Source: Mobula hypostoma (taxonomy: Eukaryota). Taken from it: a stretch of 64,000 bases of DNA. Location of the stretch: contig NC_086108.1 in the NCBI RefSeq assembly GCF_963921235.1, forward strand, positions 25,978,001 to 26,042,000, written 5' to 3'. Below the pieces are notes generated by a model. The model was not told where the DNA came from. It made no database searches and was given only the letters and a program-made list of their open reading frames with translations. Positions 1,120 to 56,628 of the stretch are shown here, one piece after another. The first letter of the stretch is position 1. Every line of letters starts with the position of its first letter. The position numbers and the translations under genes were made by a program.

Positions 1120-1830
1120 GAATCGGATGGCGGAGGAGAAGAAGCTGTTCCTGACTCACTGAGTGTGTGCCTTCAGGCTTCTGTACCTCCTACCTAATGG
1201 TAACAGTGAGAAAAGGGCATTCCCTGGGTAATGGAGGTCCTTAATAATGGGAGGATTTACAACCTTCTGCAGCTTCTTTCGGTCCTGTGCGGTAGCCCCT
1301 CCATACCAGACAGTGATGCAGCCTGTCAGAATGCTCTCCATGGTACAACTATAGAAGTTGTTGAGTGTATTTGTTGACATGCCAAATCTCTTCAAACTCC
1401 TAATAAAGCATAGCCGCTGTCTTGCCTTCTTTATAACTACATTTATAGTTGTGCGCTTTCAGGCTTCTGTACCTCCATCCTGATGGCAACAATAAGAAGA
1501 TGGCAGGTCCTTGATGATGGGGGTCCTTAATAATGGATGCTGCCTTTCTGAGGCACTGCTCCATGGAGATGTTTTGGATACTACAGAGGCTAGTGCCCAA
1601 GATGGAGCTGACTAATTTTACAACTTTCTGCAACTTATTTCGATCCTGTGCAGTAGCTGCCCCCACCCCCATACCAGATGGTGATGCAGCCAGTCAGATT
1701 GCTCTCAACAGTGCATTTGTGAAAGCTTTAGAATGTTTTAAGTGACAAACCAAATCTCCACAAACTCCTAAAGGAACATATCTGTGGTCTTGTCTTCCTT
1801 CATAGCTGCATCAATATGTTGTGAACTATG
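1120..1830 (-). mobile_element. Two tandem Rex1/Babar-like LINE 3' fragments
   Basis: ORFs 1156..1395 and 1400..1672 contain ESILTGCITVWYG, DRKKLQKVV and LPSG.RYRSLK, typical C-terminal motifs of this clade. Confidence 0.8.
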
Positions 1831-2313
1831 CAATGTGAATTTATCACAAGACCACAGGTATCAAAATGAAAACAAATGCACTGAAACATTTGTTAGGCCT
1901 TTCACTTCAGTTATGTAAACTGCGGTCCTCGAGAATCAGAGTTACAACACAAGAGCAAGTTCGTGCCCACAGCACTCAGCAATCTGAGTTTGAGCTGTCT
2001 GTGAATGTATTACTGTCACAATGAATCAGACAGCTTCTAAAGAGACCAATTTTCAGATTGTCTGATTTAAGAGCACTTTAGAGATTCTTGCAACATTAAC
2101 TCTGTGCAATTTACAATGAATTGATCATAACCCATCTTCAGCTTCCCTATACTTCATCACACTGTTGAGATAGAACCCATCCAATGTCCCAGTGGAGAAG
2201 CTAGATCTCACTTGACTGTTGAATACAGCAAAAATGTGAGTATTATAGTGTGGACAAAGCAGATGATTATGATTAAAATGAAATCTATATTATCAACAAA
2301 GTGAATCACTCAC

Positions 2314-2363
2314 CTTTACAGACATTAGAATACCTGTGATTGACAATATCTTGAAAACAATTT
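2314..2363 (-). CDS. Candidate coding exon C of a small transmembrane adaptor-like gene (NCFQDIVNHRYSNVCK)
   Basis: Minus strand: pyrimidine-rich acceptor ctttccattgtacttctcacag, 50 nt, donor AAG|GTGAGT; phase 2 start matches exon B. Confidence 0.55.
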
Positions 2364-3129
2364 CTGTGAGAAGTACAATGGAAAGATCAAAACAAGGTGG
2401 CCATGAAAGGCACTAAGAAATTGACAGGGCTGCAGGATATCATTTGTGCAGGTATTCCCAGTGAAGCAGAATAATGACAGCATCTGCTTCTCTTCTGGTT
2501 CCCATGGAATCCAGTAAGTGATATGTGCATTATCATGTTATTTGTGGCCTATTGTCATTGTATGGTCATTTACTTCCATACATGTGCAGTGGGATGCAAA
2601 GATATTTTGCAGGGCCTCGACACTTCCTATAATTGGTTATATCATGCACACTGAAAGTCCTTGTTCTGCTGATTGTTTGTAATGCAAACACAGGAAAAAT
2701 AATACCACACTTCAGTAACTCATCATGTCAATATACTTAATGAACCTATGAGTCTATTTTCACATATCAATTCAGAACTTCTTCACTTGCTAATGCTGGA
2801 AGCCACATGAAAGTGTTGGGTGAACCTCCCAAATCAGTCTAGTTAAGGAAAAGACATATATGCAATGCCAGTGGGGAATTGTGATGTTGACATGTCAGAT
2901 GCACAGCTCCTCCCTTTAAATATTATTATCTGGATCTGGAGTCACTGGAAGGACCATCATATGTTACCAGTTGTTCTTAAGAAAGCAATGATGAACCACT
3001 TTTTCGCACTTCCCAGGAGTTCCATTGAAGGTGAAGATCAACAATTTGGAAGAAATAAATATAGTATGTGACTTCAAGGGGAATCTTTAGGTGGCAGTAC
3101 TCCTATGACCTTGTCCTTCTTTGTGATAG

Positions 3130-4316
3130 TGTCATGGTCCGGTCCGTGAAGTCCACATTCTGGTTCACGTCCGGTCCATTGACCCTTGCTGCAGGTTTTC
3201 CTGTCAGCCCTGTTTCTGTTCCTGTTGAGCACTAATTGAGGCAGCTGATTCTCGTTGGGGCTGGCTGCATAAATACCTCCAGAGACCAGGGCCTGGCTTC
3301 TGGACTGTTCTTGTCCTTACTCCTTACATACCTCTCCCTGCCTTCTGAACTCCTGCCTTGTCTTGTCGATAACTCTCGCCTCGCCTGAAGTTCTTGTCTC
3401 GCCTTGTATTTTCTGAAGCCTTGCCTTGTCTTGTCGGTAACTCGTACCTCACCTGAAGTTCTTGTCTCACCTTGCATTGCCTGAAGCCTTGCCTTGTTTT
3501 GCTGGTAACTCTCGCCTCGTCTTGCCTGCAGTCTTGTCCTGGAGCCACCCTGTACCTAGCTCCCTTCCTGTCCCTTGCCTCTGCCGGGTAAGTCAGGCCG
3601 TCTTGCCGTTACCCCGCAGTTGGCCCTGTCCTTTCCTGTCCCTTGCCTCCGTCGGGTAAGCCAGGCCGTCTTGCCGCTACCTGCGGTTGGTTCTGTCCCT
3701 TCCCTCCGCCGGGTAAGCCAGGCCGTCTTGCCGTTACCTACAATTGGTTCTGTCCCTTCCTGTCCCTTGGCTCCATCGCGTAAACTAGGCTGTATTGCCA
3801 TTACCCTGCGGTTGGTTCTGTCCCTTCCTGTCCCTTGCTTCTGTCAGTTGGAGTACCGCACTCTGCCCAGGTGATCCGCGCCCTGCCCAGGAGTACTGCG
3901 CCGTGGCCAGGAGGAGCTTCAGGACCCCAAGCCTCGAGCCTCGCCCCAAGCCAACCTTCAAGACCCCAAGCCTCAAGCCTCGCCTCACGTCTCTAGTCTC
4001 AAGCCTCGCCTCAAGTCTCTGGTCTCAAGCCTCGCCTCAAGTCTGAAGGCTCCAGACTCATCCTGCCTGCTAGCCAAGTCACGTCCTTGCCTAGTTCTAG
4101 GGTCCAAGCCAGAGGCAAGACCCAGGTTCTGGGTCCTTGTCTAGTCTATGGCTCGGAGTCCAAGCCCGGGCTCCTAGCTCTCTTGTCTAGTCCTGTTCCG
4201 GGTTCCCAGTTTTCGTGTCCATGTCCTAGCCCTCACCCTGTATCCTAGTCCTCTCCCTAGTACTTCAGTGTTTGTCTCTTGCACTTGGGTCCATTCCCAG
4301 CCACCACCTTATGACA
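3130..4316 (+). mobile_element. Solo LTR (probably Gypsy) with internal tandem sub-repeats
   Basis: Termini TGTCAT...ATGACA, flanks GATAG/GATCG (5-bp TSD with one mismatch), TATA-like gcataaata near 3267, GC-rich internal repeats of about 50-60 bp. Confidence 0.8.
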
Positions 4317-4374
4317 GATCGAAGTTACAGGTTTGTGATAGGTACCACTGGAGCAGACTAGGTGAGTCACTGTT

Positions 4375-6880
4375 GTTAAAAAGGGTAGCAAGAACATGTC
4401 AAAGAATTACAGGCTGATCATCTGACATAATAGTGGGAAAGTTAATGAGAGAATTCTGAGGAGCAGGATCTACCAGCATTTAGATAGATAGAGTCTTATT
4501 AGGAGAACTCGCCATGGCTTTGTGCATGAGAAATTGTGCTTGACAAACCTTTTGAAGAGGTACAGTTGAAGTCAGAAGTTTACATACATCTTAGCCAAAT
4601 ACATTTAAACTCAGTTCTTCACAATTCCTGACATTTAATCCTAGAAAACATTCCTTGTCTTAGGTCAGCTAGGATCACTAGTTTATTTTAAGAAAGTGAA
4701 ATGTCAGAATAATAGTAGACAGAATGACTTATTTCAGCTTTTATTTCTTTCATCACTTTTCCAATGTGTCAGAAGTTTACATACACTTTGTTAGTATTTG
4801 GTAGCATTGCCTTTAAATTGTTTAATTTGGGTCAAACATTTTGCGTAGCCTTCCACAAGCTTCTCACAATAAGTTGCTGGAATTTTGTTCCATTCCTCCA
4901 GACAGAACTGATGTAACTGAGTCAGGTTTGTAGGCCTCCTTGCTCGCACACGCTTTTTCAGTTCTACCCACAAATTTTCTATCGGATTGAGGTCAGGGCT
5001 TTGTGATGGCCACTCCAATACCTTGACTTTGTTGTCCTTAAGCAATTTTGCTACAACTTTGGAGGTATGCTTAGGGTCATAGTCCATTTGGAAGACCCAT
5101 TTGTGACCGAGCTTTAAGTTCCTGGCTGATGTCTTAAGATGTTGCTCAATATATCCACATAATTTTCTTTCCTTATGATGCCATCTATTTTGTGAACTGC
5201 ACCAGTCCCTCCTGCAGCAAAGCACCCCCACAACATGATGCTGCCACCCGCATGCTTCACGGTTGGGATGGTGTTCTTCGGCTTGTGAGCCTCACTTTTT
5301 CCTCCAAACATAATGATGGTCATTATGGCCAAACAGTTCAATTTTTGTTTCAGCAGACCAGAGAATATTTCTCCAAAATGTAAGATCTTTGTCCCCATGT
5401 GCACTTGCAAACTGTAGTCTGGCTTTTTTATGGTGGATTTGGAGCAGTGGCTTCTTCCTTGCTGAGCAGCCTTTCAGATTATGTCGATATAGGACTCACT
5501 TTACTGTGGATATAGATACTTCTCTACCTGTTTCCTCCAGGATCTTCACAAGGTCCTTTGGCTGTTGTTCTGGGATTGATTTGCACTTTTCACGCCAAAG
5601 TACGATCCTCTCTAGGAGACAGAAAGCGGTATGGCAGCTGTGTGGTTCCATGGTGTTTATACTTGCGTACTATTATTTGTACAGGTGAACGTGATACCTT
5701 CAGAAATTTGGAAGTTGCTCCCAAGGATGAACCTTGGGAAAACGCATGTGCGAGCAAGGAGGCCTACAAACCTGACTCAGTTACATCAGTTCTTTCTGGA
5801 GGAATGGACTAAAATTCCAGCAACTTTTTGTGAGAAGCTTGTGGAAGGCTACCCAAAATGTTTGACCGAAGTTAAACAATTTAAAGGCAATGGTACCAAA
5901 TACTAACAAATTGTATGTAAACTCCTGACCCACTGGGAAAGTGATGAAAGAAATAAAAGCTGAAATAAGTCATTCTCTCTGCTATTATTCTGACATTTCA
6001 CATTCTTAAAATAAAGTAGTGATCCTAACTGACCTAAGACAAGGAATGTTTTCTCGGATTAAATATCAGGAATTGCGAAAAACTGAGTTTAAATGTACTT
6101 GGCTAAGGTGTATGTAAACTTCTGACTTCAACTGTATATGATGGGAAGCTAGTGTCTCTTTTCACTTTATCAAGTTCTTTGACAAGGTTATATACATAGC
6201 AGGCTGGCCTTGAAGGTTAGGTCCATTGGAGTCTAGGGAAAGCTAGCTAGTGGATTCAGAATTAGCTTAGAGATGGGAAGCAGATGGGGATGATTGAAGG
6301 TTACTTTCTGGAATGGCAGTGACCAGTGGATGGAGTTAGGACCCTTGTTATTCATTATTTATAGGAATAATTTGGATCCAATTGCATAAGTCTTGATCAG
6401 TACATTCGTGGTTGACATATATTAGGAGGAGCTGTTGATAGTGAAGTAGGTTATTGAAGATTAAAAGGGGACCTTGATCAGTTAGGGAGGTGGGCTGAGG
6501 AGTAGAAAATAGATTTCAATGCAGTTAAGTATGAGGTGATACATTTTGGAGAGTCAAACTAATGTCGGGCATGCTATGAATGGTAGGACTTGGAATACAT
6601 GCATAGTTAATTGAAAGTAGCATCATATGTAGACAGGGTGATGAAAAAAGTGTTTAGTGCAGTCAGGGCATTAAGTAAAGGAGTTAAGACATTATGTTGC
6701 CGATGTATAAATTGTTTGTCACAATGTTATAAGAAATATGTGGTTAAAATGGAAAGAGTGCAAAAAAAGGCTTATGAAGATGTTACTAAGACTAGATTTC
6801 CTGAGTTATAGGGAGAGGTAAGCCAGAGTAGATGTTTATTCCTTGCAATGATGGAGAATGAGTGACCTTACAGAAATGTA
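4375..6880 (+). mobile_element. Old degraded CR1 ORF2 fragment interrupted by the Tc1 element
   Basis: CR1 RT-like sequence (gaattacaggc, catggctttgtg, tttgacaaggt) is continuous on both sides of 4563-6134. Confidence 0.75.
4563..6134 (-). mobile_element. Sleeping Beauty-like Tc1 (IR/DR) transposon, rearranged to carry two right-hand ends; transposase is a frameshifted pseudogene
   Basis: TA|CAGTTGAAGTCAGAAGTTTACATAC...GTATGTAAACTTCTGACTTCAACTG|TA; ORF pieces WVFQMDYDPKHTS, WPSQSPDLNPIENLW, QFKGNATKY and GGSIMLWGCF. Confidence 0.95.
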
Positions 6881-6904
6881 TGCTTTGACATATTACTATG
6901 GATG

Positions 6905-7552
6905 AGTGGTGGAGAGTATATTGACTAGCTACATCGTAGCCTTGTATGGAAACACCAATGCCCTTGAAAGGAAAATCCTACAAAATGTATTGAATATGGC
7001 CCACTCCTTCACAGGTAAAGCTGGATACCACTGGATATAGTGACATGGAGCAGTGTCGCAGGAAAGCAGCATCCATTATCAGGGAGCCCCACCACATGCT
7101 CAGTTCTTGCTGTTGTTATGAGAAAGAAGGTACAGGAGCTCAGGGCTCACACCATCAGGTTCAGGAACAGTTATTATCCCTCAACCATTAGGCTCTTAAA
7201 CCAAAGGGGATAACTTACTCAACTTCACTTGCCCCATCACTGAACTGTTCCCACAACCTATGGACTTACTTACAAGGACTCTTCATCTTGTTCTCAATAT
7301 ATGTTGCTTATTTATTTATTTATCCCCCCCTGCCCCCGGCCCATATTTATTTATTTATTTATTTGTTGATTGATTGTATTTGTATAGTTTGTTGTCTTTT
7401 GTACACTGGTTATCCACCCTGTTGGCATGGTCTTTCATTGATTGTATTATCGTTATTGGTTTTATTGAATATGCACGCAAGAAAATGAGTCTCAGGCTTG
7501 TATATGGTGACATGTATGTACTTTGATAATAAATTTACTTTTAACTTTGAAC
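6905..7552 (+). mobile_element. Rex1/Babar-like LINE 3' end
   Basis: gcagcatccattatcaggga...agaaggtacaggag...ttcaggaacagttattatccc, ending in aataaatttacttt tail. Confidence 0.7.
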
Positions 7553-8099
7553 TGAGCTTTAAAAAATGGTAACAGTCTTCCCCGGGATAGGGAAGACCCA
7601 AACTAGGGGCATAGATTTGGGACGAGAGGAGAAAGATTTAAGAGAGACCTGAGAGACAAATTTTTCTTCCAGATGGTGGTGAGAGAGGAAGTGGCTGAGT
7701 CAAGTAAAATGGTATTATATAACAATCACTTGGATAGGTGTATGAAACGGCGGGGCATAAAGATATTTGTCCCGATCACAAAAAAAGACTAGACTAGTGG
7801 GGTAGGCACCATGGTTGGACTCGCTGAGCCAAAAGGCCTATAGGCCCATACAGTATTACTCTCAGGATCTGTGACTCTTTGACTATGCACACAGCACTAG
7901 AGGTCAGGGTGACCCTGCAGTTCTGAGGCAATAGCAATACTATGTTTTTCCTATTTGTAAATTTTATTGACTTCTCAATTAAATAGTTTATTCCTCAATC
8001 TTACCTCATGCGTCTTTTCACAGCAAGAGAAAATCTGCAGATGCTGGAAATCTGAGCAACACACACAAAATGCTTTGTTGTGTGTGTTGCTCATCTTCT

Positions 8100-8730
8100 T
8101 TTTTTCTTGCTACTATATACATCTATACTCAAGTCATTCTACAGGTGTGCAGTAAACAGCATCCTGACAAACTGCATCTCTGCATGGTATACAAGTGTAT
8201 TGTGGTGGACAGGAAAGATCTACGACAGGTAGTCAAAACTGCCAATGCATCCCCTTCACCAGCCTACCCTCCATCAGCGACAGATATACAGAAGGTGCCT
8301 GAAAAGGACCCGTAACATCATGCTGGGCATAGACTGTTTGTTCCATTTTCATCAAGAATTAGGCTACATGACATCCACACCTGAACCAGCAGACTCAAAA
8401 ACTGTTTCTTTCTCCAAGCAGTAATGCTGATCAACACCGCCACGCACTAACCCGCCTCACAAACCACATGCCCAACCACCATTATTTATCAGTTATTTTC
8501 CATAGGTTATGTACAGGCATTCCAGTGCCTAGTGTCACTTTATGGACATACAATCAATCTATGAATACAAGCTATCTGATGTATTTATATTTATTGTGCT
8601 TTTATTATTATTTTGTTCTTTACCTTACTGTGTGTTTTTTGCGCTGCATCAGATCTGGAGTAATCATTATTTCATTTTCCTTTACACTTGTGTATTGGAA
8701 ATGACATTAAATCATTTTGAAACTTGAATT
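8100..8730 (+). mobile_element. Rex1/Babar-like LINE 3' end
   Basis: agcatcctgacaaactgcatctctgcatggta...gactcaaaaactgtttctttctccaagcagt and tail gaaatgacattaaa. Confidence 0.65.
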
Positions 8731-10539
8731 TGTTCGAGTTCATGCACACAGGCAGCAAAATGGCATTTAAAACTTTTCAAATTCTTTGTGCGATAGGAGA
8801 TCATTATGCCCAAACAATCCAATTTTTAAGGGAAAAATAAGAAAAGAAAAATAACTGCAGATTTAATCATTCAGGAGGAAGACACCAGGAATCACAAAGT
8901 GTCTCCACGGATGCTGAGTTCTTCGAGCACTCCTTATTTTATTTTATTTCAGATTCTAGCATCTGATGTTAAAAAAAGATCGTGACCTTTTGCATTTAAT
9001 TTTAAATCTGCTTTTCAGTCAGTCAGTATGTCATAACCATATTCAACTCTTTCCCTTTGCTGAGATATTGTATATTCAGTATGCTTCAATTTAATTATTC
9101 TGTTCATACCAAAGATTGTTCCTTTTTATTTAACCAACAAGGAACACTTTGTCATACCTTTTCTCTTCCCATTGTGTATATTTTAACTTGTGCTTCCCTA
9201 TTAACTCTATTTCTAATTTCTATAGAAGAGCTTGTGATTTGATAACACCTCAGTGGAACAAGGCCAGCTTCCAACAGAGCTTGATTCATCCCTGACACAG
9301 AAATTAAAAGCAAATGCCTTCCTCTTGAACTTTATCCACCGTATCTTGATTTCTAAAGAGCTCTCTGTCAGTCTCAAACCCTGGTTCTTGCTTTAGTTCT
9401 GAATTTCATGCAGAGACTGACTGAAAGCCCATATTAAGCTGCTGTTCTATTTGATGGGATATATATTGAACATATTACCAGTAAAAACATCGCATAAATG
9501 CAACATAACTAGAAGTGCTATCAGACATATGGCACATATCAACTATGTTATTTTGCAGTGTTTCAGGATACATAAATGAAATTCGCAAATCACACATGGG
9601 GCATTCTGTATGCTCTAATAAAATATTCATATGTGGTTTGTGCTGACTGAGATCTGTTGGTGGCAAAGCCTGAAGCAAATTTTCCTTCCATCCAAAAATT
9701 GAAAAGTAAAGCTTGCATTTATACAGCATTTCTCTGCCCTCAGGTCATCTCCTTCAACCAATGAAAAACTTGTTTGCTTACAGTGCAGATGAAGAGTTCA
9801 GCCTTTCATGACCGCACCAACTCTATTAAGCAGTTATCAAGCTAGTCCCACTTCCTCGCAATCTCTCAGTAAGTTCTCTCTTTTCATAGATTTACACTGC
9901 ACAGTTTTAAGTACTACAATTGAATCTGTCTCCACTGACACCCCAGCAGTGCATTCTAGACCCTAACCTCTCATTACTTTAAAATATTTTTGCCAATCAC
10001 CCAGTTCATGACACATCCAACAAGAGGAAAAGTTTTTTTTCTTATCTTCTCTGCCTACATCTCCTTCATGATTATAATTATTTCCAGTGGATCCCTGTGC
10101 ATTTTCCTTTCTTCCAAGAAGGACAAGCCAGGCATCTTCAATCTATCCACATAGCCAAAGTTCTTATTTCATGAATCGTTCTGGTAAACCTATTTTGCAT
10201 TATCGCTAAAACTCTAAGTATGATTCCTAGAACTTGGCACAATGCTCCAACTGTGGACAAATAAGTTATATAAAGCAATCAAAAATATATTGAAGGGACT
10301 CAGCAGGTTGAGTAAGACCTGTGGTGGGAAAGGAATTGCAGATGTTTCAGTTCGGAACCCTGCAACCCTGCAAAAGTCCTAATGGTTCAACATCATTATG
10401 ATAATATAATTACTTATAATCAATACCCATTCACTTGTTGGTTACAGATACCCAAACAAATGGGTTTATTGATTGTTGCTTTATTCTGATACCATATGTG
10501 CTATCTGTACCTGTCATCTCCTCCTGAAATTCAGTGAGT

Positions 10540-11493
10540 GTGAGGGCAGTTTGCTGTTCTCGGTGTCGGATGTGGGAGGCCCTGGAGTCTCCAAGCCTCC
10601 CGGACGTCTACATCTGCGCCAAGTGTATCGAGATGCAGCTCCTAAGGGACCGCGTTACGGAACTGTAGCTGCAGCTCGATGACCTTCGTCTGGTCAGGGA
10701 GAGTGAGGAGGTGATAGAGAGGAGTGGAAGGCAGGTGGTCACGCCAGGGCCACGGGAGGCAGACAAGTGGGTCACGGTTAGGAGGGGGAAGGGGAAAAGT
10801 CAGGTAATAGGGAGTACCCCGGTGGCTGTGCCGCTTAACAACAGGTACTCCTGTTTGAGTACTGTTGGGGGGGACAGCTTACCCAGGGGAAGCGACAGTG
10901 GCCGTGCCTCCGGCACAGAGTCTGGCCCTGTAGCTCAGAAGGGTAGGGCAAGGAAGAGGAGGGCAGTTGTGATAGGGGACTCGATAGTAAGGGGGTCAGA
11001 TAGGCGATTCTGTGGACGCAGTCCAGAGACCCGGATGGTAGTTTGCCTCCCTGGTGCCAGGGTCCGGGATATTTCTGATCGTGTCCAAGATATCCTGAAG
11101 TGGGAGGGTGAGGAGCCAGAGGTCGTGGTACATATAGGTACCAATGACGTAGGTAGGAAAAGGGATGAGGTCCTGAAAGGAGAATATAGGGAGCTAGGAA
11201 GGGAGTTGAGAAAAAGGACCGCAAAGGTAGTAATCTCGGGTTTACTGCCTGTGCCACGCGACAGTGAGAGTAGGAATGCGATGAGGTGGAGGATAAATGC
11301 GTGGCTGAGGGATTGGAGCAGGGGGCAGGGATTCAAGTTTTTCAATCATTGGGACCTCTTTTGGAGCAGGCGTGACCTGTACAAAAAGGACGGGTTGGGG
11401 GTGGGAATCAAATTAAAGAGGCTAGCCGTGAGGAGGTTAGTTCACAGCAGGGGGATGGGAACCAGTGCAGAGAGACAGAGGGGTGTAAAGTGA
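10540..11493 (+). pseudogene. CR1 ORF1 (CxxC zinc finger plus SGNH/GDSL esterase), with one stop and an apparent deletion near 11397
   Basis: CCSRCRMWE...ICAKC upstream of an in-frame TAG; ORF 10711..11493 has IGDSIVRG, CLPGA and HIGTND, then KKDGL lacking the expected following His. Confidence 0.88.
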
Positions 11494-14427
11494 GGATAGA
11501 AGCAAAAAGTACTAAGGAGAAAAGTAAAAGTGGCAGGCCGACAAATCAAGGGCAAGCATTAAAAAGGGCAGCTTTTCAGCATAATTGTACAAGGGCTAAG
11601 AGAGTTGTAAAAGAGCGCCTGAAGGCTTTGCGTGTCAATGCAAGGAGCATTCGAAATAAGGTGGATGAATTGAAAGTGCAGATTGTTATTAATGATTATG
11701 ATATAGTTGGGATCACAGAGACATGGCTCCAGGGTGACCAGGGATGGGAGCTCAATGTTCAGGAATATTCAATATTCAGGAGGGATAGACAAGAAGGAAG
11801 GGGAGGTGGGGTGGCGTTGCTGGTTAAAGAAGAGATTCATGCAATAGAAAGGAAGGACATAAGCTGGGAAGATGTGGAATTGATATGGGTAGAGCTGCGT
11901 AACACTAAGGGGCAGAAGACGCTGGTGGGAGTTGTGTACAGGCCACCTAACAGTAGTAGTGAGGTCGGAGATGGTATTAAACAGGAAATTAGAAATGTGT
12001 GCAATAAAGAAACAGCAGTTATAATGGGTGACTTCAATCTACATGTAGATTGGGTGAACCAAATTGGTAAAGGTGCTGAGGAAGAGGATTTCTTGGAATG
12101 TATGCGGGATGCTTTTTTGAACCAACATGTCGAGGAACCTACTAGAGAGCAGGCTATTCTGGACTGGGTTTTGAGCAATGAGGAAGGGTTAATTAGCGAT
12201 CTTGTCGTGAGAGGCCCCTTGGGTAAGAGTGACCATAATATGGTGGAATTCTTCATTAAGATGGAGAGTGACATAGTTAATTCAGAAACAAAGGTTCTGA
12301 ACGTAAAGAGGGGTAACTTTGAAGGTATGAGACGTGAATTAGCTAAGATAGACTGGCAAATGACACTTAAAGGATTGACGGTGGATATGCAATGGCAAGC
12401 ATTTAAAGGTTGCATGGATGAACTACAACAATTGTTCATCCCAGTTTGGCAAAAGAATAAATCAAGGAAGGTAGTGCACCCGTGGCTGACAAGAGAAATT
12501 AGGGATAGTATCAATTCCAAAGAAGAAGCATACAAATTAGCCGGAGAAACTGGCTCACCTGAGGACTGGGAGAAATTCAGAGTTCAGCAGAGGAGGACAA
12601 AGGGCTTAATTAGGAAGGGGAAAAAAGATTATGAGAGAAAACTGGCAGAGAACATAAAAACGGACTGTAAAAGCTTTTATAGATATGTAAAAAGGAAAAG
12701 ACTGGTAAAGACAAATGTAGGTCCCCTGCAGACAGAAACAGGTGAATTGATTATGGGGAGCAAGGACATGGCAGACCAATTGAATAATTACATTGGTTCT
12801 GTCTTCACTAAGGAGGACATAAATAATCTTCCAGAAATAGTAGGGGACAGAGGGTCCAGTGAGATGGAGGAACTGAGCGAAATACATGTTAGTAGGGAAG
12901 TGGTGTTAGGTAAATTGAAGGGATTGAAGGCAGATAAATCCCCAGGGCCAGATGGTCTGCATCCTAGAGTGCTTAAGGAAGTAGCCCAAGAAATAGCGGA
13001 TGCATTAGTGATAATTTTTCAAAACTCGTTAGATTCTGGACTAGTTCCTGAGGATTGGAGGGTGGCTAATGTAACTCCACTTTTTAAAAAAGGAGGGAGA
13101 GAGAAACCGGGGAATTACAGACTGGTTAGCCTAACGTCGGTGGTGGGGAAACTGCTGGAGTCAGTTATCAAGGATGTGATAACAGCACATTTGGAAAGCA
13201 GTGAGATGATCAGACAAAGTCAGCATGGATTTGTGAAAGGAAAATCATGTCTGACGAATCTCATAGAATTTTTTGAGGATGTAACTAGTAGAGTGGATAG
13301 GGGAGAACCAGTGGATGTGGTATATTTGGATTTTCAAAAGGCTTTTGACAAGGTCCCACACAGGAGATTAGTGTGCAGACTTAAAGCACACGGTATTGGG
13401 GGTAAGGTATTGGTGTGGGTGGAGAATTGGTTAGCAGACAGGAAGCAAAGAGTGGGAATAAACGGGACCTTTTCAGAATGGCAGGCGGTGACTAGTGGGG
13501 TACCGCAAGGCTCAGTGCTGGGACCACAGTTGTTTACAATATATATTAATGACTTGGATGAGGGAATTAAATGCAGCATCTCCAAGTTTGCGGATGACAC
13601 GAAGCTGGGTGGCAGTGTTAGCTGTGAGGAGGATGCTAAGAGGATGCAGGGTGACTTGGATAGGTTGGGTGAGTGGGCAAATTCATGGCAGATGCAATTT
13701 AATGTGGATAAATGTGAAGTTATCCACTTTGGTGGCAAAAATAGGAAAACAGATTATTATCTGAATGGTGGCTGATTAGGAAAAGGGGAGGTGCAATGAG
13801 ACCTGGGTGTCCTTATACACCAGTCATTGAAAGTGGGCATGCAGGTACAGCAGGCGGTGAAAAAATGCGAATGGTATGCTGGCATTTATAGCGAGAGGAT
13901 TCGAGTACAGGAGCAGGGAGGTACTACTGCAGTTGTACAAGGCCTTGGTGAGACCACACCTGGAGTATTGTGTGCAGTTTTGGTCCCCTAATCTGAGGAA
14001 AGATGTCCTTGCCATAGAGGGAGTACAAAGAAGGTTCGCCAGATTGATTCCTGGGATGGCAGGACTTTCATATGAAGAAAGACTGGATGAACTGGGCTTG
14101 TACTCGTTGGAATTTAGAAGATTGAGGGGGGATCTGATTGAAACATATAAGATCCTAAAGGGATTGGACAGGCTAGATGCAGGAAGATTGTTCCCGATGT
14201 TGGGGAAGTCCAGGACGAGGGGCCACAGTTTGAAGATAGAGGGGAAGCCTTTTAGGACCGAGATTAGGAAAAACTTCTTCACACAGAGAGTGGTGAAGCT
14301 GTGGAATTCTCTGCCACAGGAAACAGTTGAGGCCAGTTCATTGGCTATATTTAAGAGGGAGTTAGATATGGCCCTTGTGGCTACGGGGGTCAGGGGGTAT
14401 GGAGGGAAGGCTGGGGCGGGGTTCTGA
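11490..14427 (+). pseudogene. CR1 ORF2 (APE endonuclease plus reverse transcriptase), interrupted near the C-terminus
   Basis: 761-aa ORF with NARSI, ITETW, GDFN, SDH and KFADD; stops at 13773 and 13797; C-terminus continues in ORF 13876..14427. Confidence 0.95.
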
Positions 14428-14867
14428 GTTGGATGATCAGCCATGATCATAATAAATGGCGGTGCAGGCTCGAAGGGCCGAATGGCCTACTCCTGCACCT
14501 ATTTTCTATGTTTCTATGTTTCTATTATAGATGCTGTTTCAGACATTCTTGTGATGCTAATGTGTTTATTGAAGAAGCTGACAAGTGATAGCTTAACTCT
14601 GCAGTTGGTGCTGAGTGGATCAGGTAGGCCTTGAAGCTCATTTATTACTGAGTTGGATTTTAGATACATCTCTTGAGAAAAAAAACATTGCAAAAGAGGC
14701 TTTCTGGCCTAAAATGTACACATTTCAAGCAGTATTCACTTGAAAATTCAAAGAAATTCAATGTATATTTGATCATGAAATATATGTAAAGAAGAATACA
14801 AATAATGCATGCTAGGAGGACATAGTAATATAGTATACTCCACAGTTAGCAATACAAAACAACTTTA

Positions 14868-15620
14868 AAACTGAAAATGCTGGTAAAGCTTGTCTGGTCA
14901 GTTGTCATCCTTCGAAAGAGAACATGAGTTAACGCTTTAAGTCTGAAACTCTTCATCAGAAGTGGGAAAGAGAAGTTAGTTTTCAATCTGTAGATAATGT
15001 GACTGGAGGAGTGGCAAGGACAAATGCAATATCTGTGATAGGATGAGTCCAAGGCGACTGTGCAAAAATGCAGTTAGAAATAATTACACTTCTTTGTATT
15101 CTGTGCAGTTAATAGCAGGGCTGTGGAACATGACCAGCAGGTCTGTCTGTACTAATGGAGAGAGAAAAACTGAGCCAAGATCTCTGATGGATGACAGACT
15201 TACATGGCCAGTTCTGACACAGAGAGAGAAAGCAAGTTACCTACTTTTGGAGAATTCAATACTGAATCCAAAAGGATGCAACATGCCTGATAGAAGATAA
15301 GATTTTGCTTCTCAAGGCTGCATTGATCTGCATTGCAACAGTGCAGGAGGCATAGAGAATTGCTCAGAGTAGGAACAGAATGGAGAATTAAAGTGGCAGG
15401 CAGCCAGAAGCTCAGAACCACTTGTGTGCTCCACAGAGTATGAAAGTAAACTGCATTTGTTTTCTCCACTGAAAAAGGGACTAGATTGTGAGCACTTCAT
15501 GCAATGCACAATATTGACGAGCAGAAGAATCACTGCTTCACTTAGACGGACTGTTTGGGTAGGAAAGAAGGGGGTGAAAAGACGGCTGTTGGCCTCCTGA
15601 GGCTGCATGGAAGAATAAGT
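14868..15620 (-). mobile_element. Old Penelope-like element 3' portion
   Basis: Degenerate terminus (aatgctgg...ctcttcatcag) followed by GIY-YIG-region relic; minus-strand ORFs give VACHFNS-like and LEKQNLIF motifs. Confidence 0.65.
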
Positions 15621-15639
15621 GAAGACTGAACTGATTGCA

Positions 15640-16140
15640 TGAAATGATCGGCTGTGAAGAGGGTACAGAAGATGTTTACCAGGATGCTTCCTGGATTAGA
15701 GAGTACTAGCCACAAAGAGGAGTTGGACAAACTTGGATTGTTTTGTCAGGATCATTGGAGGCTGTGGGGTAATCTGTTATAATCATGAAAAATTATACAG
15801 GCATAGATACTGTAGATAGTCTCAGTCCTTTTCACAAGGTGTAAGTGTCAATACTAGAGGGCATAAGCTTAATGCGAGAAGAGTAAAGATTAAATAATGT
15901 ATACATTGCAAATATCTTACAATAGAGAGTGGTGCCTGGTATGTGATAATAGGAAATTAATGGAAGCAGATATAATAGTCACATTTAGGTGGCAGTTAGA
16001 CAGGCGCAAGAACAGACAGGGGATGAAGGGATATGGAGCAGGAGTCAATCAAATTAATTTGGATTTACACCATCTTTGGCACAAACATTATGGGCCGAAA
16101 AGCCTGTTATTGTGCTGTCATTTTTCTAAGATTTATATTC
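15640..16140 (+). mobile_element. CR1 3' fragment
   Basis: gagggtacagaagatgtttaccaggatg...actagagggcata...gggccgaaaagcctgt. Confidence 0.75.
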
Positions 16141-17092
16141 ACAGTGTAGTTCCAACATCTGACTGAAATTTCAAATGCTACAGTCCCATGCAGCCCAACT
16201 CATTGTTTTCACAGTGCCCACCAGCCAATGAGCAATCAGTCAGAATATTTTGGTCTATAGGTCATTACTGAAGTCACAAAACTGTGATACACTCATAGCA
16301 CTTTTGCAGAAACCAAATTTAAAATAGTTTCCTAAAAATGCACACACATACAAACCTTTCCATGTATCTGAAGAGAACATAGATCATTCAGAGTGGAATC
16401 AGAGCAGCTCAATGGATCTTCCTTTCGGAAGATGGTTTCCTGTTTGAATTTCTTTTCTACTATAACCCTTTGTTCATGACATGTGAATTGCAGATTGACA
16501 AAATCAAGCTTAAACTACAACCTGTGGGTTGGACGTTTGCAGTCTACGTGACTCAGCATCAAATGAATAGTGTATTTAGCAAATGAGGTACTGCAGAGCA
16601 TCCTAATGTGCGATTATAATGTCAAATTGAGTAGCAAAGGGGACCACAATTCCAGGTAATATCTGGTGCAAAAAGTGCCATTCATACATTTTACATGAAA
16701 GTACAAAGTAATATTTACAATTTATACATTTCTGTATATGACACTTTATTATTTATGCTACCTCAATGGGATTTATGATGACTTGATAGCTAGTAGTTAA
16801 GTTTGAAATCTTCATTATCCACTCCATTTCAAATGAGATGAATTGCCTTCCAGATCTTCAAATATTTAACATTCTGCCAATATCAAAAAAAGGATTTGCC
16901 AAACTTACAGTTTCACAACATGGCAGTAAACAACATAGAGCAGAAGAGATGATAATAAATTTCAAATAAAGCATAGTTTAACTTCATTGATTCTGTTCAT
17001 AGGCTGAAAAAAAATCTGGATTGATCTGAGACTGTGTTTTATAAATGTTAAGTTCTTTCAGGATTTTCTCCACAGCACAGGGCTGATTGCAA

Positions 17093-17915
17093 TGTAAGAC
17101 AATGGGGTTATGTTAATTGGCTTGTATCAAACCAGACAACGCTGGCTAAGTTATTTTATTCAAGGAAGCTTGCAGACCAGATTGATAATATCACATATCA
17201 CATCAAATCACTGATCTATCAATAGTTGGAAAATCTGTGTACTCAGAGTCAGCTTTCATAGAATTAGCTTTGGGTGTTTGGGATATCTGTCCCCAGAAAC
17301 TTTTTCACCATCTGTGTGAAAAGGGATCTGAAAAAATATCAATGCATGTGAAATCACCAAAGTGGTAATAAAAGCAATATAAATATAAGAGTGCAGTCAG
17401 GCTTGTATTGAATGATCAAAGAACATCAAGAAGAATGACAGAAAGATAGGATGAATTAGAATCCATTCTCCTGCCTTTGATTTTGTGATGGATGGTTCAT
17501 TCATTTGTAACAGGTTGGTATGTCTTTTTAGCTTATAGGAATTGTACCCGTGTTTTGGAAATCCTTTGTGTTTTGGAAATCCTTTGTAATTTGGAAATCT
17601 TCTATAAGATAGAGATCTTCTGTGAATTTTAAATGTACTTTGAAGGAAGTTACCTAAATTTAAATGTGTTTCATTAAAAATAACTGAACTGTATTTAAAC
17701 TATTTTGTAAGCTGGAAGTATCCCCTCCTTGTTAGGGAGGAGACCCACTGCTCAAATGGTGGGTATTAGCAGCTTATCTCGCTGTGGAAGATAAACAGGA
17801 AAGTGATGTAGCCTTTGAAGAGTAGATAGCTACAGTGTAACCTCTCTTTAGTGAGGGTCCACATGCCTATTTACATTGGATAGGGCTTAAGATCATTTGA
17901 GCTTAGAATTTCAGC
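17093..17915 (-). mobile_element. Ancient divergent Penelope-like relic, copy 1 (paralogue of 50833-51690)
   Basis: Colinear nucleotide similarity to 50833-51690; broken minus-strand translation gives LKRGY and SYRRFPNYKG. Confidence 0.5.
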
Positions 17916-18723
17916 AAACCCAAGATCATCAGCTAATAGAGGTAACTGTGTTTCATTCACACAAAGAGGTGAATTAGTTCGCCACTGTTAGCCCCCTGCA
18001 ACTTCTGAATTTTAAATTCAATCTATGTAATGCTAGTGGACTTTCATCATTATAACTGTTATCATAATATTCTTTTAAAGATGAGTATTAAATGTAAATT
18101 GAAATGTTTTCAATGATTTCTTCTGTAGGTTGCAGAGCTGTCTATGGACAGCTGTGCAATTAGCTACACTGAAACAGCTTTATAAGTGTTGTTTTTAATG
18201 CAACATGCACTTTGGCTACAGCTCAAGCCTTTTCAGGATCAATTATGACCTTAACTAAATGCAGAACCAGTGAAATACATATATGATAAAGCTGTGCAAT
18301 AGAATTCAACTCCAGCATGGAGCTGTCACATGTAATCTTAAATATCAAATACAAGTAAAATTAACATTGCATGGAAATTTAAATTTCAAGGTCATATTAG
18401 CTTTGGATGAATGGTTATAGAACAAAGGTCTTGGACCTCAGGTTAACATGAATCCAATATTCTTAACGAGGATAACGACAGACCAGGGAACACAGACAAA
18501 AATGAGAACCCAGAGAAATACACAAAGACGAGGAAAAAGCAAGCTGATGTTTCTACCTTCCATTTAACCAAATTAAAAGAGATTATATTGGTAGCTTTCT
18601 AAAAAAAAAGACTTTATAATGATAGATCCATCTGGAAGTCTGTTACAGTCAGGTTCCTGCTGGCATGACAATAGCAGGTGTTTGTGACAGCAGTTACTGG
18701 CTCTCACTGAGGTAATCACTTAC

Positions 18724-18780
18724 TCATGGCTATGTGCACTGCTTGTCAGTTCCTTAATATTACTTTGCAATTTCTGCTCG
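18724..18780 (-). CDS. Candidate coding exon B (EQKLQSNIKELTSSAHSH)
   Basis: Acceptor ttatttgtttctgacag, 57 nt, donor GA|GTAAGT; only the phase 2-2 frame is stop-free and it fits both neighbours. Confidence 0.6.
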
Positions 18781-19269
18781 CTGTCAGAAACAAATAACTA
18801 TTACAGAGTACAAGTTCTCAATCTGTTTAAGATTCATATCTTGCTTTCAAAAAGGATAAACTCTATTATTTTATCTCTGGTAGCATCAGGCAGATATATT
18901 ATTCTCTTTTTAAGTTTGAGAAGTAAGGTCACTCATTACTGATAGATGGCAGGTCTCTGATATTTGTTCAATTGGACGGAGTGTCTTACAAGACTGATCA
19001 TGAAGAAAATAATGATATAAATCTCTATTCGTCCATTATGTTAGGGTGACTGGCAATGATTGAAAAGAGTTCCAGCTAGATAACCACAGTGGTTCTTTCC
19101 TTCTTTTGCGTATTTCAGATTTCGAAGGATTTGTGGAGGGTAATGATACATACAGCATTTTCAACAGCAAAACTTTATTGCCTATTGAAAATGTAATGCC
19201 AGAATGGAAAATTTTGAATACGAATTTAAGTAATTATATATTAGATGTAAGATAACTGATGAAGGGTTC

Positions 19270-19870
19270 ACGATTCAAGATTGTTTAGTGTCTTATCCAT
19301 TATACAAGTGCAAAGAGAACAAAATATTTGTTACTCCAGATCTAATGCAGCACAAAGAAACATAATAAAATCAAGAACACAATAATGGTACAAACACAAT
19401 AAATATAAATACATAAGATAGCTTATATACCTATGTAGATTGATTGTATCACCATAAAGTGACACCAGACACAGGAGGTGGCTGACAGGAAGTTATAAAG
19501 TAGTGGTGTTTGGGGGTGCAGAGGGGTGGCTTAGTGGGTAGTGGTGTTGATCAGCATTAATGCTTGGGGAAAGTAACTGATCTTGAGTCTGGTGATCTTG
19601 ACATGGACGCTACATTGCTTTCTCCTTGATGGAAGTGGAACAAATAGTGCATGAGCTGTGGGGGTGGGATGCTTCTTGGTATTGCTAGCCCTTTTCTGGC
19701 ATCTTTCTGCATATATGTCCTTGATGGTGGGTAGGCTGGTGCCGGTGATGTGTGGTGCAGTCTTGGCTACCCATTGTAGAGCTTTCCTGTCTGCTGCCGT
19801 GCAGTTTCTGTACCATGCAATAACGCAGCTTGTTAGGATGCTCTCCACTGGGCATCAGTAGAATGACATG
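19270..19870 (-). mobile_element. Rex1/Babar-like LINE 3' end
   Basis: ORF 19531..19848 has ESILTSCVIAWY, DRKALQ, LPS.R and SYFPQA. Confidence 0.8.
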
Positions 19871-20239
19871 AGTATAGTTGGGATGGGAAGGGGTGATTCA
19901 ATGTCCACCCTCATGATTCTTAAACTAAATTAGTCCTCTGCCTGAACTATTAATGACAGTTACCATCAGAATATTTTCTATCCCAGTAAGCCAACCTATG
20001 TATTTCAACTCTGCATGGCACACATGTATTTATCAAACTTTCAATGTTCTCGACTAAGTATCCAACAACTCTGCTTCATTTGTAGGCTTCAGTGGTATTT
20101 TTGCCTCTGCTGAAAGATGATAAATAGGAATTAATTTACCAGATATGCATTTACTGTTTTTCACAAAAGTACAACATCCAATTCCTTTTTCCCGTCAACC
20201 AGTTGCTTCTTTGTCACCTGGTTGAAAAGAAACAGGAAT

Positions 20240-21365
20240 TTGGTTTATGCTTCTTAATGGCGATACTGGCATGGATAAAGGAATGGCTGACAGGCAGGAA
20301 GCAATGAATGGGAAAAAAGGGGCCTTCATGGTTGGCTGCCAGTGACTGGAGGTGTTCCTCAGGGGTTAGTATTGGGACTGTACGTTGTGCATTGTTTGTT
20401 AATGATTTGGATAATAGAACTGATAGTGTTGTGACAAAGTTTGTGCATGATATGAAGATAGATGGAGGGGTAGGTAGTGTTGAGGAAGCAATGTGATTGC
20501 AGCAGGACTTAGACAAATTGGAGTAATGAGCAAAAGAAGTGGCAGATGGAATACAGTGTTGGGAAATGTATGATAATGTATTTTGGAAAAAGGAACAATA
20601 GTGCAGACTATTATCTAAATGGAGAGAAAATTTAAACATCAGAGGTGCAGAGAGATTTAGGACTCTTTGTGTAACATTTCCCAGATAGTTAATTTACAGG
20701 TCGAGTTTGTAGTAAAGAAGGCAAATGCAATGTTGGCATTTATTTCAAGTGGAATAGAGTATAAAAGCAAGGAGATAATGTTAAGATTTTATAAGGCACC
20801 ACTCAAGTTGTACTTGGAGTATTGTCAACAGTTTTGGGCCCAATATCTCAGAAAGGGTGTGTTGTCATTGGAGAGGTGGTTCATGAGGATGATTCCGGGA
20901 ATAAAGGGGTTAACAAATGAGGAGTGATGGGCAGCCAGCTTTTGGCCTGTATTCACTAGAATTTAGAAGAATGAGGGGGAATCGCATTGAAACCAACCAA
21001 ATGTTGAAAGGACTAGCTAGGCTGGATGTGGAGAGGAAGTTTCCTATGGTGGGGATATTGAGAACTAGAGAGCACAACTTCAAAACTGAGGGGTGACCTT
21101 TTAAAACAGAGGTAAGTTGGATCTCTTCTAGCCAGAGAGTAGTGAATCTATGGGTACTCTGCCACAGACTGCAGTGGAGGCTAAGACGGGGGTCTACTTA
21201 AAGCGGAAGTTGATAGTTTTTCTGACTGGTCAGGACATCAAATGATATGGTGAGAAGGCAGGTGTATGGGTTGTGTAGGATCTGGGATCAGCCATAATGG
21301 AGTGGTGGAGCAGACTCGATGGGCTTAATGATCTAATTCTGCTCGTATGTCTTAGGGTCTTATGA
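20240..21365 (+). mobile_element. Degraded CR1 3' fragment
   Basis: ORF pieces VNDLD...KFVHDMKI and KKANAMLAFISSGIEYKSK; CR1 3' UTR. Confidence 0.85.
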
Positions 21366-21629
21366 ACTTACTAACCCTCTCACCTCCAATTTTATCTAAG
21401 TTATTTATCTATATCAAGAGCAACAGGTGCTCCAGGACTGATCCCTCTGGAACACCACTGGTCAATGTCTTCCATCCAGAGTAACTTTCTTCCACCATTA
21501 CCTTCTGCCTTCCATGAGCAGGCCAATTCCGAATTCAGACTACCAAATCACCATGGATTACATGCATCTTTTATGTTAGATAATCATACAGGAAAACATT
21601 TTTAAACATGCATGTCTGGCCTGCTTTAC

Positions 21630-21807
21630 TTTAAAGCCAAACAAATGCACAGAGATAGAGACAGCATTGCAGATACCATGGCTATAAGGATTGATAAACT
21701 CCAAAGGAATGGCCTCATCCATTCCAAGAGGATGGCCAGTGCAGTTTCCTGCATTATGAGTCGTCCCGAGGTTACGGCACACGGGAACATTGACGACTGT
21801 TCATAAC
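21630..21807 (-). CDS. Candidate coding exon A encoding a transmembrane helix plus CxC motif (MQETALAILLEWMRPFLWSLSILIAMVSAMLSLSLCICLAL)
   Basis: Acceptor catttcag, donor AA|GTAAAG (phase 2), ATG at 21754 with A at -3; non-repetitive and locally CpG-retaining; about 25 uncharged residues. Confidence 0.6.
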
Positions 21808-21964
21808 CTGAAATGTGGTGGCCTGGCAAGATAGTTAAATAAAAACATAGACTAATCAAAAGCTATTGTAGGTCAACCAGTTTGTTTTTTTTCTCTCTCT
21901 TCGCTGCCTTGCGTATTTTCTGTATAATTTATGATGTGTGTTCTGTCTGTACTGAAGTACCTGT

Positions 21965-24339: not shown

Positions 24340-25610
24340 TTCAGGAATGGAAGAATTTTACAACAGGACAGTTTGCTAATGAGCCTTGATTGCAATCAGT
24401 TCTACTACAGTACAAAACCTTCTACAATGTTTCTCTTCCACGAATTACAGGCTCTACATTGGAACGTTTTTACTAAAGGTCCATTGTACAAAGGATTACT
24501 TCCACAATAGGACAGCTGACACAATCCCTATTTTACTTTGTGCAAATACCACAATTGTTAGGTTCCATTTTGGTTGTGTTCTATTATTGGTGAATGCTAT
24601 AATGGGATCTTCTACCCTTGATTAAATTTGAATAGGACACATTTAACAAAGAGTAGAGACTACATTGGATGCCTTCAGTAATGGGCTGGACTACAAGAGT
24701 GTTTTCTATACAGTAATAGGTGATTTTTACTTAGAGCCATTTATGCTATTGTTATTTTTTCATAATTAGGAGTTTTGTAATAGATGTCACAAATGGGTGA
24801 TTTCAAATTCTTCAATATCTTGGTTCTATGGATTATAAAACAATGAATGAGTTTTATAATGGCATGTTCTAAATTGCAGTTTTGGATAGGTTCTACCATC
24901 AGTAGATTGGATCTAATAAGGGATGTTTCTCTAGCAGAATAATTTGGGAATGGGTATTTTCTACAATGAAGTGCTTCTACAACAAGCAGATCCTACATTG
25001 TGTGATAGGTGATCTTGACAGTATGAATTTACAATGGGTAAGCTTTATACATTTTGCAATCAGTAAGTTTCAAGAAAGAATTGGTGTGTTCTTGGGGAAG
25101 GGGAGGGCAAGCTTCTGAAGTAAAGGTAGAGTCAATAATTGGGTTCTACAAAAGATAATTTCTACAGTGGCTGGTTCCTTCAGTATATGACTTCTACAAT
25201 ACTTGGATTGTACAATCAGTATATTCTTCAATAGATTAGTTCTATAATAGCTGGCTTTTGAATTGGGTAATTGCTACAATGGGTATCTCCTACAATCATG
25301 CCTTTTCAATGGGAAGATTAAGCAGTCTGTGAGTAGTTACATTCTATAATGGATATTTCCTAACATCTCTGAACTGAGCGAGCATTGTAATTGATTAGTT
25401 CTATAAGAAGCTATTCAGCAACTAGTGGTTCTGAATTGTATGTGTTTTATACAGCAAGATCTACAATCAGGTGGGCTTCCATGATGGCCAGGTTCCAAGC
25501 CAATGGTTTAGAAAATGAATGGGCCTTTTGGTGGCTTGATTCGACAAGTTAGCCTCTACAATAGCTGTAGTCTACAACAGACAGGTTTATAATCAGTGTG
25601 TTCGTTAATG
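24340..25610. repeat. Degenerate 16-bp-period tandem array (TTCTACAA(T) core plus variable ~7-8 nt)
   Basis: Cores in exact register at 25144, 25160, 25192, 25208, 25224, 25240, 25256, 25272 and 25288; motif recurs throughout the interval. Confidence 0.8.
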
Positions 25611-32022: not shown

Positions 32023-32221
32023 CTCAATGCCAAATACCATGAACCGGGTGCTAACAGAGGACAAACAGGCAATTGTTCCAGGCTTTGTACCTCTGGCTGG
32101 AAAGATTATTGGACGAAGGAAGGACCATGTTGTTCAGAGGAATCGTGAAAGTGATGAAAGCAAGTGGTCTGACTACAATAGTTTTTGTAGGTAACATATC
32201 TGAGAAAGCTTCTGATATGTT

Positions 32222-35129: not shown

Positions 35130-35300
35130 ATTTGGGTAGTTACTTGCAAAATGCGCCTTGGTTTTAAGCTGTAAGAGAATTCAAGGAGCTTCAGGAAAGT
35201 CTCAAGCATTCGGCTTTCATGAGTATAAAGATCCAGAATCTACTCTGTGTATATTGGATGAACTTCAAGTGGGAGACTGGAAAAGCTTGTAAAACTAGAT

Positions 35301-55320: not shown

Positions 55321-56628
55321 ATTTTATCCATTTACTCAATGTCTAATTACCAGGAGAGAGCTTCTAAAAAGATATTGATAAGTCTGGGTCTTCCATGAGA
55401 TGGTGTCATTGTATCCATCCTTCCACTGAGAGTACAGAACAATCTTTTTGAGATTGCAGCACACTGACACAGCCACTAAAAGGACAACACTTTTCTTCTC
55501 TCCAGAACACAGAATAATAGAAAGGAGATGGAGTATATCTCTATGTAATGCATCACATGGCCAAATGTTGCTGTAAAGCAGAGCTCCTTGGAGCCCTTGC
55601 TTCATGGTATTGGTCCATGGCATAAACAAAGTCGGGAACCCCTGCTCTAAAGGTAATGACAAACCACTGTGTAATTGAGGGATTGTTTATTGGTAAGAAC
55701 TGGATAAGCTTTTTAGTCCTTAACAAAATGTTCTTTTTTCTGATGTTAAGTGGAATTACATAGAATGCACAGCACAGAGATACTGTATACCTTTAATTAT
55801 ATAGCCATCCATGTTAGTGCCTGTTCTCAAGCCTCTCCCACTCTAATTTATCCAATCCTCTCTTCTGTTCCTTTTCCAGGATGTGGTTTATAACTTCCTC
55901 AGAAAGGCATCAACTGCTTCTTATCAAAGTAATCTACACATTCTAATCATTTTCCTGGAAAGAACATTTTCCTAAGTTCATGACTAGATTTCCTTAAATT
56001 TTCTAAAGGTAATTAAATTTGTGGCCTTTAGTTTAGGAGTCCCTTCGCAAGTTAGATATTTTCTCTTTACTTTCCTTAATAAAGTTTGTCCTAATTCATT
56101 AGGTCGCCATCAGGCCGTCGCCGCACCTTCCAAGCTATACTTGTTCTTTTACTCCTTCCAGATAGATATAATTCACCCTCCCATGCTGCATGCTGTATGA
56201 CATATATACAATTCCGCAACAAGAATCTTCTGGAGGAACTCAGGATGTTAAGCAGCATCTGCGGGTGGAAGGGAATTGTCAACATGTTGGGTCAAGATAC
56301 TGCGTCAGTATTATACAATTCTAGTCCTGATGAATGTGTAATGTTAGCAAGTCATGGGGAAAATTATAGCCTTGGAAATGGTGATTTTTCACCAGAATTT
56401 GCAGTTTTTTTCCTATTGGATGTTACAGTAGTCTACTGAATATATGTGAAGATGGGGCAACAGTTCCTATTTTACTCTTCAATGCTTCTTATCCTATGTC
56501 CGGCTTGTAAAGTTAGCTCTATTTAACTGTAAACAACAGGAATTCTGCAGATGCTGGAAATTCAAGCAACATACATCAAAGTTGCTGGTGAACGCAGCAG
56601 GCCAAGCAGCATCTATAGGAAGAGGCGC

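Follow-up and report, generated by a model that had tools for sequence, protein, structure and literature searches.

Palmitoylated transmembrane adaptors (pTRAPs) are catalytically inert docking platforms that become phosphorylated after receptor triggering (PMC9544816, PMC4861716). Their published anatomy, which the candidate described here matches in its helix, CxC and YxN, combines a short ectodomain, a single membrane helix, a juxtamembrane CxC or CxxC and a tail with several tyrosine motifs (PMC9544816, PMC2196071). In SCIMP the CxC is S-acylated (PMC7655920), and the tail of the mouse protein has its Grb2 tyrosine at a distance of 30 residues (PMC5253658); in NTAL it is a CxxC that is S-acylated, and YxN is the Grb2 motif (PMC2196071). 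Since the first exon of SCIMP holds at least seven codons (PMC9544816), a helix exon that is not the first one is normal in this class. In two fish papers SCIMP figures as an adaptor of mammals or as a table entry (PMC10568090, PMC11524855).

The locus considered here lies in a window of 64,000 nt (the whole stretch of Mobula hypostoma DNA that was analysed), which consists of AT-rich vertebrate DNA loaded with repeats. Lacking a folded domain and evolving rapidly, transmembrane adaptors can escape homology pipelines. An initial annotation had proposed that three minus-strand islands of the window belong to a hidden spliced gene for a SCIMP-like adaptor.

Anatomy of the candidate exons

The three islands have AG/GT ends and phases 1-2, 2-2 and 2-1 exactly as proposed. 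The first, exon A (minus strand, 21630..21807, 178 nt, phase 1-2), is a candidate transmembrane exon. Read from the proposed start ATG at 21752..21754, which has an A at position -3, it encodes an ectodomain of 14 residues followed by an uncharged hydrophobic stretch of 28 (residues 15-42, of which 15-41 are encoded at 21632..21712; KD19 maximum 2.55), predicted to form a single membrane helix. The C-terminal end of this helix carries a CxC (CIC, residues 36-38, 21641..21649), a candidate palmitoylation site, and three further apolar residues, not basic ones, come after it.

Exon B (minus strand, 18724..18780, 57 nt, phase 2-2) would contribute a hydrophilic linker. Its splice sites, scored like all others with a matrix of approximate vertebrate frequencies, are middling (207th of 4047 AG and 215th of 3273 GT on the minus strand), and it can be skipped, exon A joining exon C in frame without it. 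Exon C (minus strand, 2314..2363, 50 nt) has the second-best splice pair of 146 minus-strand candidates (acceptor 57th of 4047 AG, donor third of 3273 GT), the top one sitting in an old CR1 fragment. Its phase 2-1 frame contains two cysteines, 13 residues apart, and YSNV (2321..2332; Y72 from the 21754 Met), which by sequence fits the Grb2-SH2-type YxN motif, as the annotation had pointed out (PMC2196071). A hydrophobic phase 1-0 frame of exon C is open as well.

One of three frames runs through the joined exons A, B and C with no stop, bearing out the annotation on this point, and none of the exons contains a stop or frameshift. The compatible phases had been offered as further support. However, the non-repeat DNA of positions 1-21629 offers 13 phase-2-acceptor candidates that satisfy these thresholds, exon B is only the fifth of them and exon A can do without it; phase compatibility is therefore not evidence. 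What stands of the three-exon chain is that exons A and C are unusual, whereas exon B is unremarkable and its place in the gene is not established. The chain ends on the open phase-1 donor of exon C and no last exon occurs inside the window, where the DNA remaining beyond that donor is mostly LINE sequence; the 3' end of the gene presumably lies beyond the window's left edge. The tail visible within the window has 36 residues, a single tyrosine and no PxxP.

Chance expectation, relatives and transcripts

The foremost alternative is that there is no gene: exon A would be a hydrophobic frame that arose by chance and is flanked by moderate splice sites, and B and C would be pseudo-exons chained by pattern-seeking. 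Chance frequencies were obtained from 500 simulated 35-kb strands (250 of order 2 and 250 of order 4) that modelled the non-repeat DNA (35,385 bases per strand), the repeat or unique status of the exons being judged by self-comparison inside the window only. With thresholds set post hoc at the observed values, a splice-bounded uncharged helix as hydrophobic as that of exon A arose in 15 of the 500 strands, and the same helix with a CxC or CxxC in none of them (three at a laxer KD19 of 2.3). Open phase-2 exons that equalled exon C in strength appeared in 22 of 500, in two when a YxN was included and in four when any of the common tyrosine motifs was allowed. These counts overstate the true odds, because the cut-offs were post hoc and because the real window has seven helix-like exon loci on its two strands, versus about one per strand in a first-order null (40 runs).

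This surplus of helix-like loci speaks for chance. So do the splice sites of exon A, which are only in the top 10-12% of the minus strand (acceptor 396th of 4047 AG, donor 395th of 3273 GT), the ease of chaining that 13 phase-2 candidates afford, and a pseudo-exon in an old CR1 that scores as high as exon C. On the other side, exon A is the most hydrophobic of the seven loci and the sole one in non-repeat DNA that also has a CxC. CpGs have been retained in its 5' 53 nt (five, versus about 0.45 expected), and only four clusters of this kind occur in non-repeat DNA, one of them inside a solo LTR. Two independently rare features, exons A and C, lie on one strand, in the right order and in matching phase, and this is hard to dismiss. 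Toward its 5' end, exon A was also considered for an RNA hairpin, which was rejected (z -0.77, matched by 45 of 200 shuffles).

An old CR1 reverse-transcriptase fragment (minus strand, 21394..21567) starts some 60 nt below the donor of exon A and has no extension into the exon. A short likeness at the donor prompted a comparison with seven CR1 copies; in all seven the anchored extension into exon A was no better than in shuffles, so exon A is not CR1-derived. A profile search of 21575-21900 returned nothing. The window also holds a young CR1 element whose first frame shares 90% identity with a gene model of Mobula hypostoma (best of 91 matches).

In all, 414 stop-free segments were scanned with Pfam: all 228 minus-strand non-repeat segments of at least 40 aa, 184 of 259 from the plus strand, and the exon B and C frames. 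The only match above a curated cut-off was the LINE-type ALKBH8_N; matches below it (TSR at 9630-9797, a zinc finger at 15315-15695 and others) were taken as chance. No neighbouring gene was recognised among these segments and there is therefore no synteny to compare. Rfam and tRNA searches gave 0 matches each.

Relatives of the 58-residue exon A frame were sought in a collection of 5.8 billion proteins. None of the 17 word-sharing candidates of 103-2000 aa scored, nor did the one candidate of 31-102 aa, a blank that is weak evidence. As a control query showed, this collection includes NCBI models of Mobula hypostoma, M. birostris, Hypanus, Hemitrygon, Pristis, Narcine, Leucoraja, Rhinoraja and several sharks. 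A phmmer search of 1.84 billion representatives likewise found no relative; its one match (P0001, 851 aa) was an artefact, a tandemly repeated protein unrelated to exon A and aligned over 19 residues. In simulations of relatives at 70% identity, phmmer recovered 50 of 50 when the whole exon was the query and 47 of 50 when the frame began at the Met, and at 50% identity 36 and 13 of 50, respectively; at 80% identity at least three shared 5-mers were retained in 98% of trials. By these measures, no close annotated orthologue is apparent among the sequences searched. In Pfam-A at E<=10, no adaptor family matched the exon A frames (32, 42, 58 and 78 aa) or the B and C frames, in a search whose power is lowered by filters that drop most matches above about 0.1 and by scoring the exons singly. 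PDB sequences yielded 0 matches. Neither the 58-aa nor the 42-aa frame gave a usable result in the ESM Atlas, which bears on neither novelty nor absence.

Annotation pipelines often leave short, homologue-less frames non-coding. The lack of an annotated relative, which extends to several batoid proteomes, fits a hidden gene, yet it lowers the odds of a conserved, well-expressed one and sits well with there being no gene. No RNA data set was listed as containing 21560-21900. Three RNA-like runs (one study, same species label) contained 0.00 of 31 sampled words from that interval, and what their contigs covered of 1830-3230 was a repeat (3128-3230) alone, exon C being left bare. Their tissues are not given and contigs show presence only; they count neither for nor against a gene. 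Altogether, these data make it fairly probable that a real spliced single-pass membrane gene is present, and we consider the absence of any gene unlikely, though it deserves serious weight.

Start, orientation and integrity of the product

The start of exon A and the length of its ectodomain are not fixed, because the frame is open for 17 codons upstream of the proposed Met, back to the phase-1 acceptor, and because a second in-frame acceptor, at 21822, scores higher than the first (7.2 versus 5.0 with the same matrix). Use of the latter would extend exon A in frame by 15 nt (minus strand, 21808..21822); a branch-point-like TTAAC lies just upstream. Two alternative in-frame ATGs (21790 and 21718) have a T at -3, and an out-of-frame ATG with a purine at -3 opens a 10-codon uORF (minus strand, 21772..21804) that is relevant only if the start codon sits in exon A.

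The protein may thus begin upstream of exon A and could be a larger type I receptor, with exon A as its internal transmembrane exon, exon C in its signalling tail, and ectodomain exons located further upstream, beyond 64000 or too divergent or short to be recognised. Phase-1 acceptors are usual after Ig, FN3 or stalk exons, and phase 1-2 helix exons occur in type I immune receptors, namely class I cytokine receptors and the CAR/CTX and MPZ families. Exon A shares their phase pattern, and some of them have juxtamembrane cysteines. The 17-22 extra open codons carry one cysteine and the five CpGs, the out-of-frame ATG in good context burdens only a start within exon A, and introns here are long (16.4 kb), all of which would suit such a receptor. 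Unlike these receptors, however, the locus has no detected ectodomain or Box1-like exon within the window: no Ig, fibronectin, lectin or other ectodomain family was present in 166 upstream minus-strand stop-free segments of at least 40 aa (42 kb), and a receptor whose ectodomain can be recognised is less likely to have escaped annotation and the searches for relatives. Eight signal-peptide-like first exons were considered, none convincing, and a repetitive stretch at 24400-25600, considered as a mucin-like ectodomain, was rejected (period 16, every frame interrupted). We regard the larger receptor as unlikely, if well short of negligible. The small adaptor proposed by the annotation is accordingly supported in part: its helix, CxC and YxN seldom arise by chance, but its size does not follow, since in form the open phase-1 acceptor suits a larger receptor just as well.

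It is improbable that the locus is a decayed or silent relic whose protein is no longer made. Gene-like parts with no annotated product in two devil-ray proteomes, and the moderate splice sites of exon A, would agree with a pseudogene, but three exons free of stops and frameshifts, and the retained CpGs, would not.

A type II orientation would place the N-terminus inside and exons B and C outside, as neck and disulfide loop, making YSNV incidental. The weak positive-inside signal (net charge -1 before the helix and 0 over the 15 residues after it), the arginine just before the helix and the spacing of the exon C cysteines lean that way. Against it, the 36 residues after the helix contain no N-glycosylation sequon (by eye), and a Trp/Pro cluster at the N-terminal end of a helix with a CxC at its C-terminal end, as found here, fits type I/III; we consider this orientation very improbable. 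Hardly more credible is a 42-residue, tail-less membrane micropeptide from unspliced exon A, to which the in-frame stop two codons past the donor, the weakest donor of the three, would lend itself, but which leaves exon C unexplained and has no relative among proteins of 31-102 aa.

A putative adaptor compared with known ones

We tentatively propose that exons A and C, with or without exon B, belong to an unannotated, fast-evolving single-pass protein working like a palmitoylated transmembrane adaptor. Minus-strand splicing, for which the signals are present, would remove introns of 2.8 kb and 16.4 kb and continue past the window's left edge. The long uncharged helix would insert with its N-terminus outside, exposing between 14 and about 36 residues, a number that a small first coding exon would raise somewhat. 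By analogy with LAT, NTAL and SCIMP, the CxC at the inner face could be S-acylated and direct the protein into membrane microdomains. Once a receptor is triggered, YSNV might be phosphorylated by a Src- or Syk-family kinase and so become a docking site for the Grb2 SH2 domain; further tyrosines would sit in 3' exons outside the window. The proposal draws on two rare features in order and phase, CpG retention, an origin other than CR1 and the want of an upstream ectodomain family; the weak positive-inside signal, the visible tail with its one tyrosine and no PxxP, and the lack of a relative weigh against it.

A still bolder version, which we hold to be rather doubtful, is that the locus encodes a leukocyte adaptor of cartilaginous fishes which is palmitoylated, recruits Grb2 and has been missed by every current batoid annotation; it would represent a lineage-specific family or else an unrecognisably diverged counterpart of SCIMP or TRIM. 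If this were true, the adaptor layer of antigen- and pattern-receptor signalling would already have been diversified in the first jawed vertebrates, and exon anatomy would offer a handle for finding more such genes. Confirmation would supply a missing wiring part of the oldest living adaptive immune system and indicate that ray annotations overlook small immune genes; refutation would counsel caution on chaining pseudo-exons. No shark or ray adaptor of this kind is described in the titles and abstract openings searched, a scope with subscription literature mostly outside it, and six adaptor names are absent from the 12 of 24 supplementary files of a whale-shark paper that were searched (PMC8455134).

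Compared with the pTRAP class as a whole, the candidate has one uncharged stretch as its single membrane helix and a juxtamembrane CxC that is present as a motif, its acylation being predicted. The ectodomain is short when read from the 21754 Met of an exon that is open from its phase-1 acceptor, with no ectodomain family in the 42 kb upstream, and in place of several tail tyrosine motifs there is one YxN in the 36 residues visible within the window. With TRIM/TRAT1, SIT, LAX, GAPT, PAG, LIME and LST1 it shares, as read from the 21754 Met, a short outside part, one helix and a tyrosine-motif tail (PMC4861716), but the ray frames have no Pfam match to any of them. The exon layout is much like that of TRIM, in which the helix exon is also phase 1 and the YxN sits in a small exon further on. 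LAT and NTAL/LAT2 resemble the candidate in their single helix, juxtamembrane cysteine pair, YxN and small tail exons; they differ in having a CxxC, an ectodomain of about six residues, many tyrosines and a shared 11-exon layout, whereas the ray candidate has a CxC, at least 14 residues before the helix and one visible tyrosine (PMC2196071).

SCIMP likewise combines one helix with a juxtamembrane CxC, and the helix exon of the candidate is compatible with a short upstream coding exon such as that of SCIMP. The YxN of SCIMP lies about 30 residues into the tail and that of the ray 31 past the helix end, or 37 if counted from the CxC. Several adaptors have their first YxN at 25-40 residues from the membrane. 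A Trp/Arg/Trp cluster precedes the helix of SCIMP and is shared with the ray candidate. The likeness to SCIMP put forward by the annotation nevertheless finds no support in testing: there is no match to the family profile or to any other adaptor family in Pfam-A (exons scored singly), no basic cluster follows the CxC, and the SCIMP pattern given in the annotation fits exon A only with two gaps, a 2-residue and a 1-residue shift (by eye). SCIMP has three tyrosines, for Grb2, Csk and SLP65/76, and a proline-rich Lyn-binding domain after the Grb2 tyrosine; in the incomplete visible tail of the ray only the YxN, at a comparable distance, has an equivalent. We therefore consider a SCIMP orthologue quite improbable. 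In conclusion, the candidate may work like SCIMP, but its membership of the SCIMP family is unsupported. Since grass carp is stated to have SCIMP (PMC10679900), an adaptor of cartilaginous fishes would be an expected gap-filler and not a shock; if real, it would add to a known structural class that is expected in jawed vertebrates.

Additional reading frames and upstream exon candidates

Exon C (2314-2363), the minus-strand candidate that carries YSNV in the frame of the proposed membrane-adaptor gene, contains a second open frame, of phase 1-0, encoding a hydrophobic 16-mer. Given this frame, exon C could be part of another reading or of another gene. Exon A, the candidate transmembrane exon, is likewise overlapped by two more open frames, one of 74 codons on the minus strand (21579-21800) and one of 66 codons on the plus strand (21606-21803). 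Neither had a match in Pfam, and the minus-strand frame does not continue into exon B, the candidate linker exon. Upstream of exon A, strong splice pairs on the minus strand delimit four candidate exons in mostly non-repeat DNA, at positions 56127-56258, 57309-57440, 60325-60387 and 36183-36205. These could be 5' exons of the proposed gene or exons of another gene, or they could represent background.

Repeats and mobile elements

The long intron proposed between exons B and C harbors an element (4561-6136) with inverted ends of approximately 400 bp and a broken transposase, whose translation suggests a Tc1/mariner-like family. A separate repeat with internal tandem units of 57-68 bp lies at 3128-4100, and RNA contigs from all three runs analyzed are rich in sequence from its left end. 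The minisatellite at positions 24400-25600 has a period of 16 bp and is so heavily decayed in sequence that Tandem Repeats Finder detected just one 33-bp piece of it. At 47583-48439 lies an 857-bp solo LTR-like element with a CpG-rich interior; its terminal inverted repeats are 7 bp long, and its target-site duplication measures 4 bp.

CR1 LINEs and their database matches

Two young CR1 LINE copies are found on the plus strand (10669-14525 and 32216-35141), along with numerous older CR1 fragments on both strands of the window. The copy at 10669-14525 carries ORF1, a 274-aa SGNH-esterase. Matches to the CR1 ORF1 query include several NCBI batoid gene models with fused ORF1 pieces (TMEM204, ABHD14A-like and RPS24 isoforms). 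ORF1 pieces also occur in a single record that bears the label Pseudomonas aeruginosa. These fusions are probably annotation artefacts or contamination.
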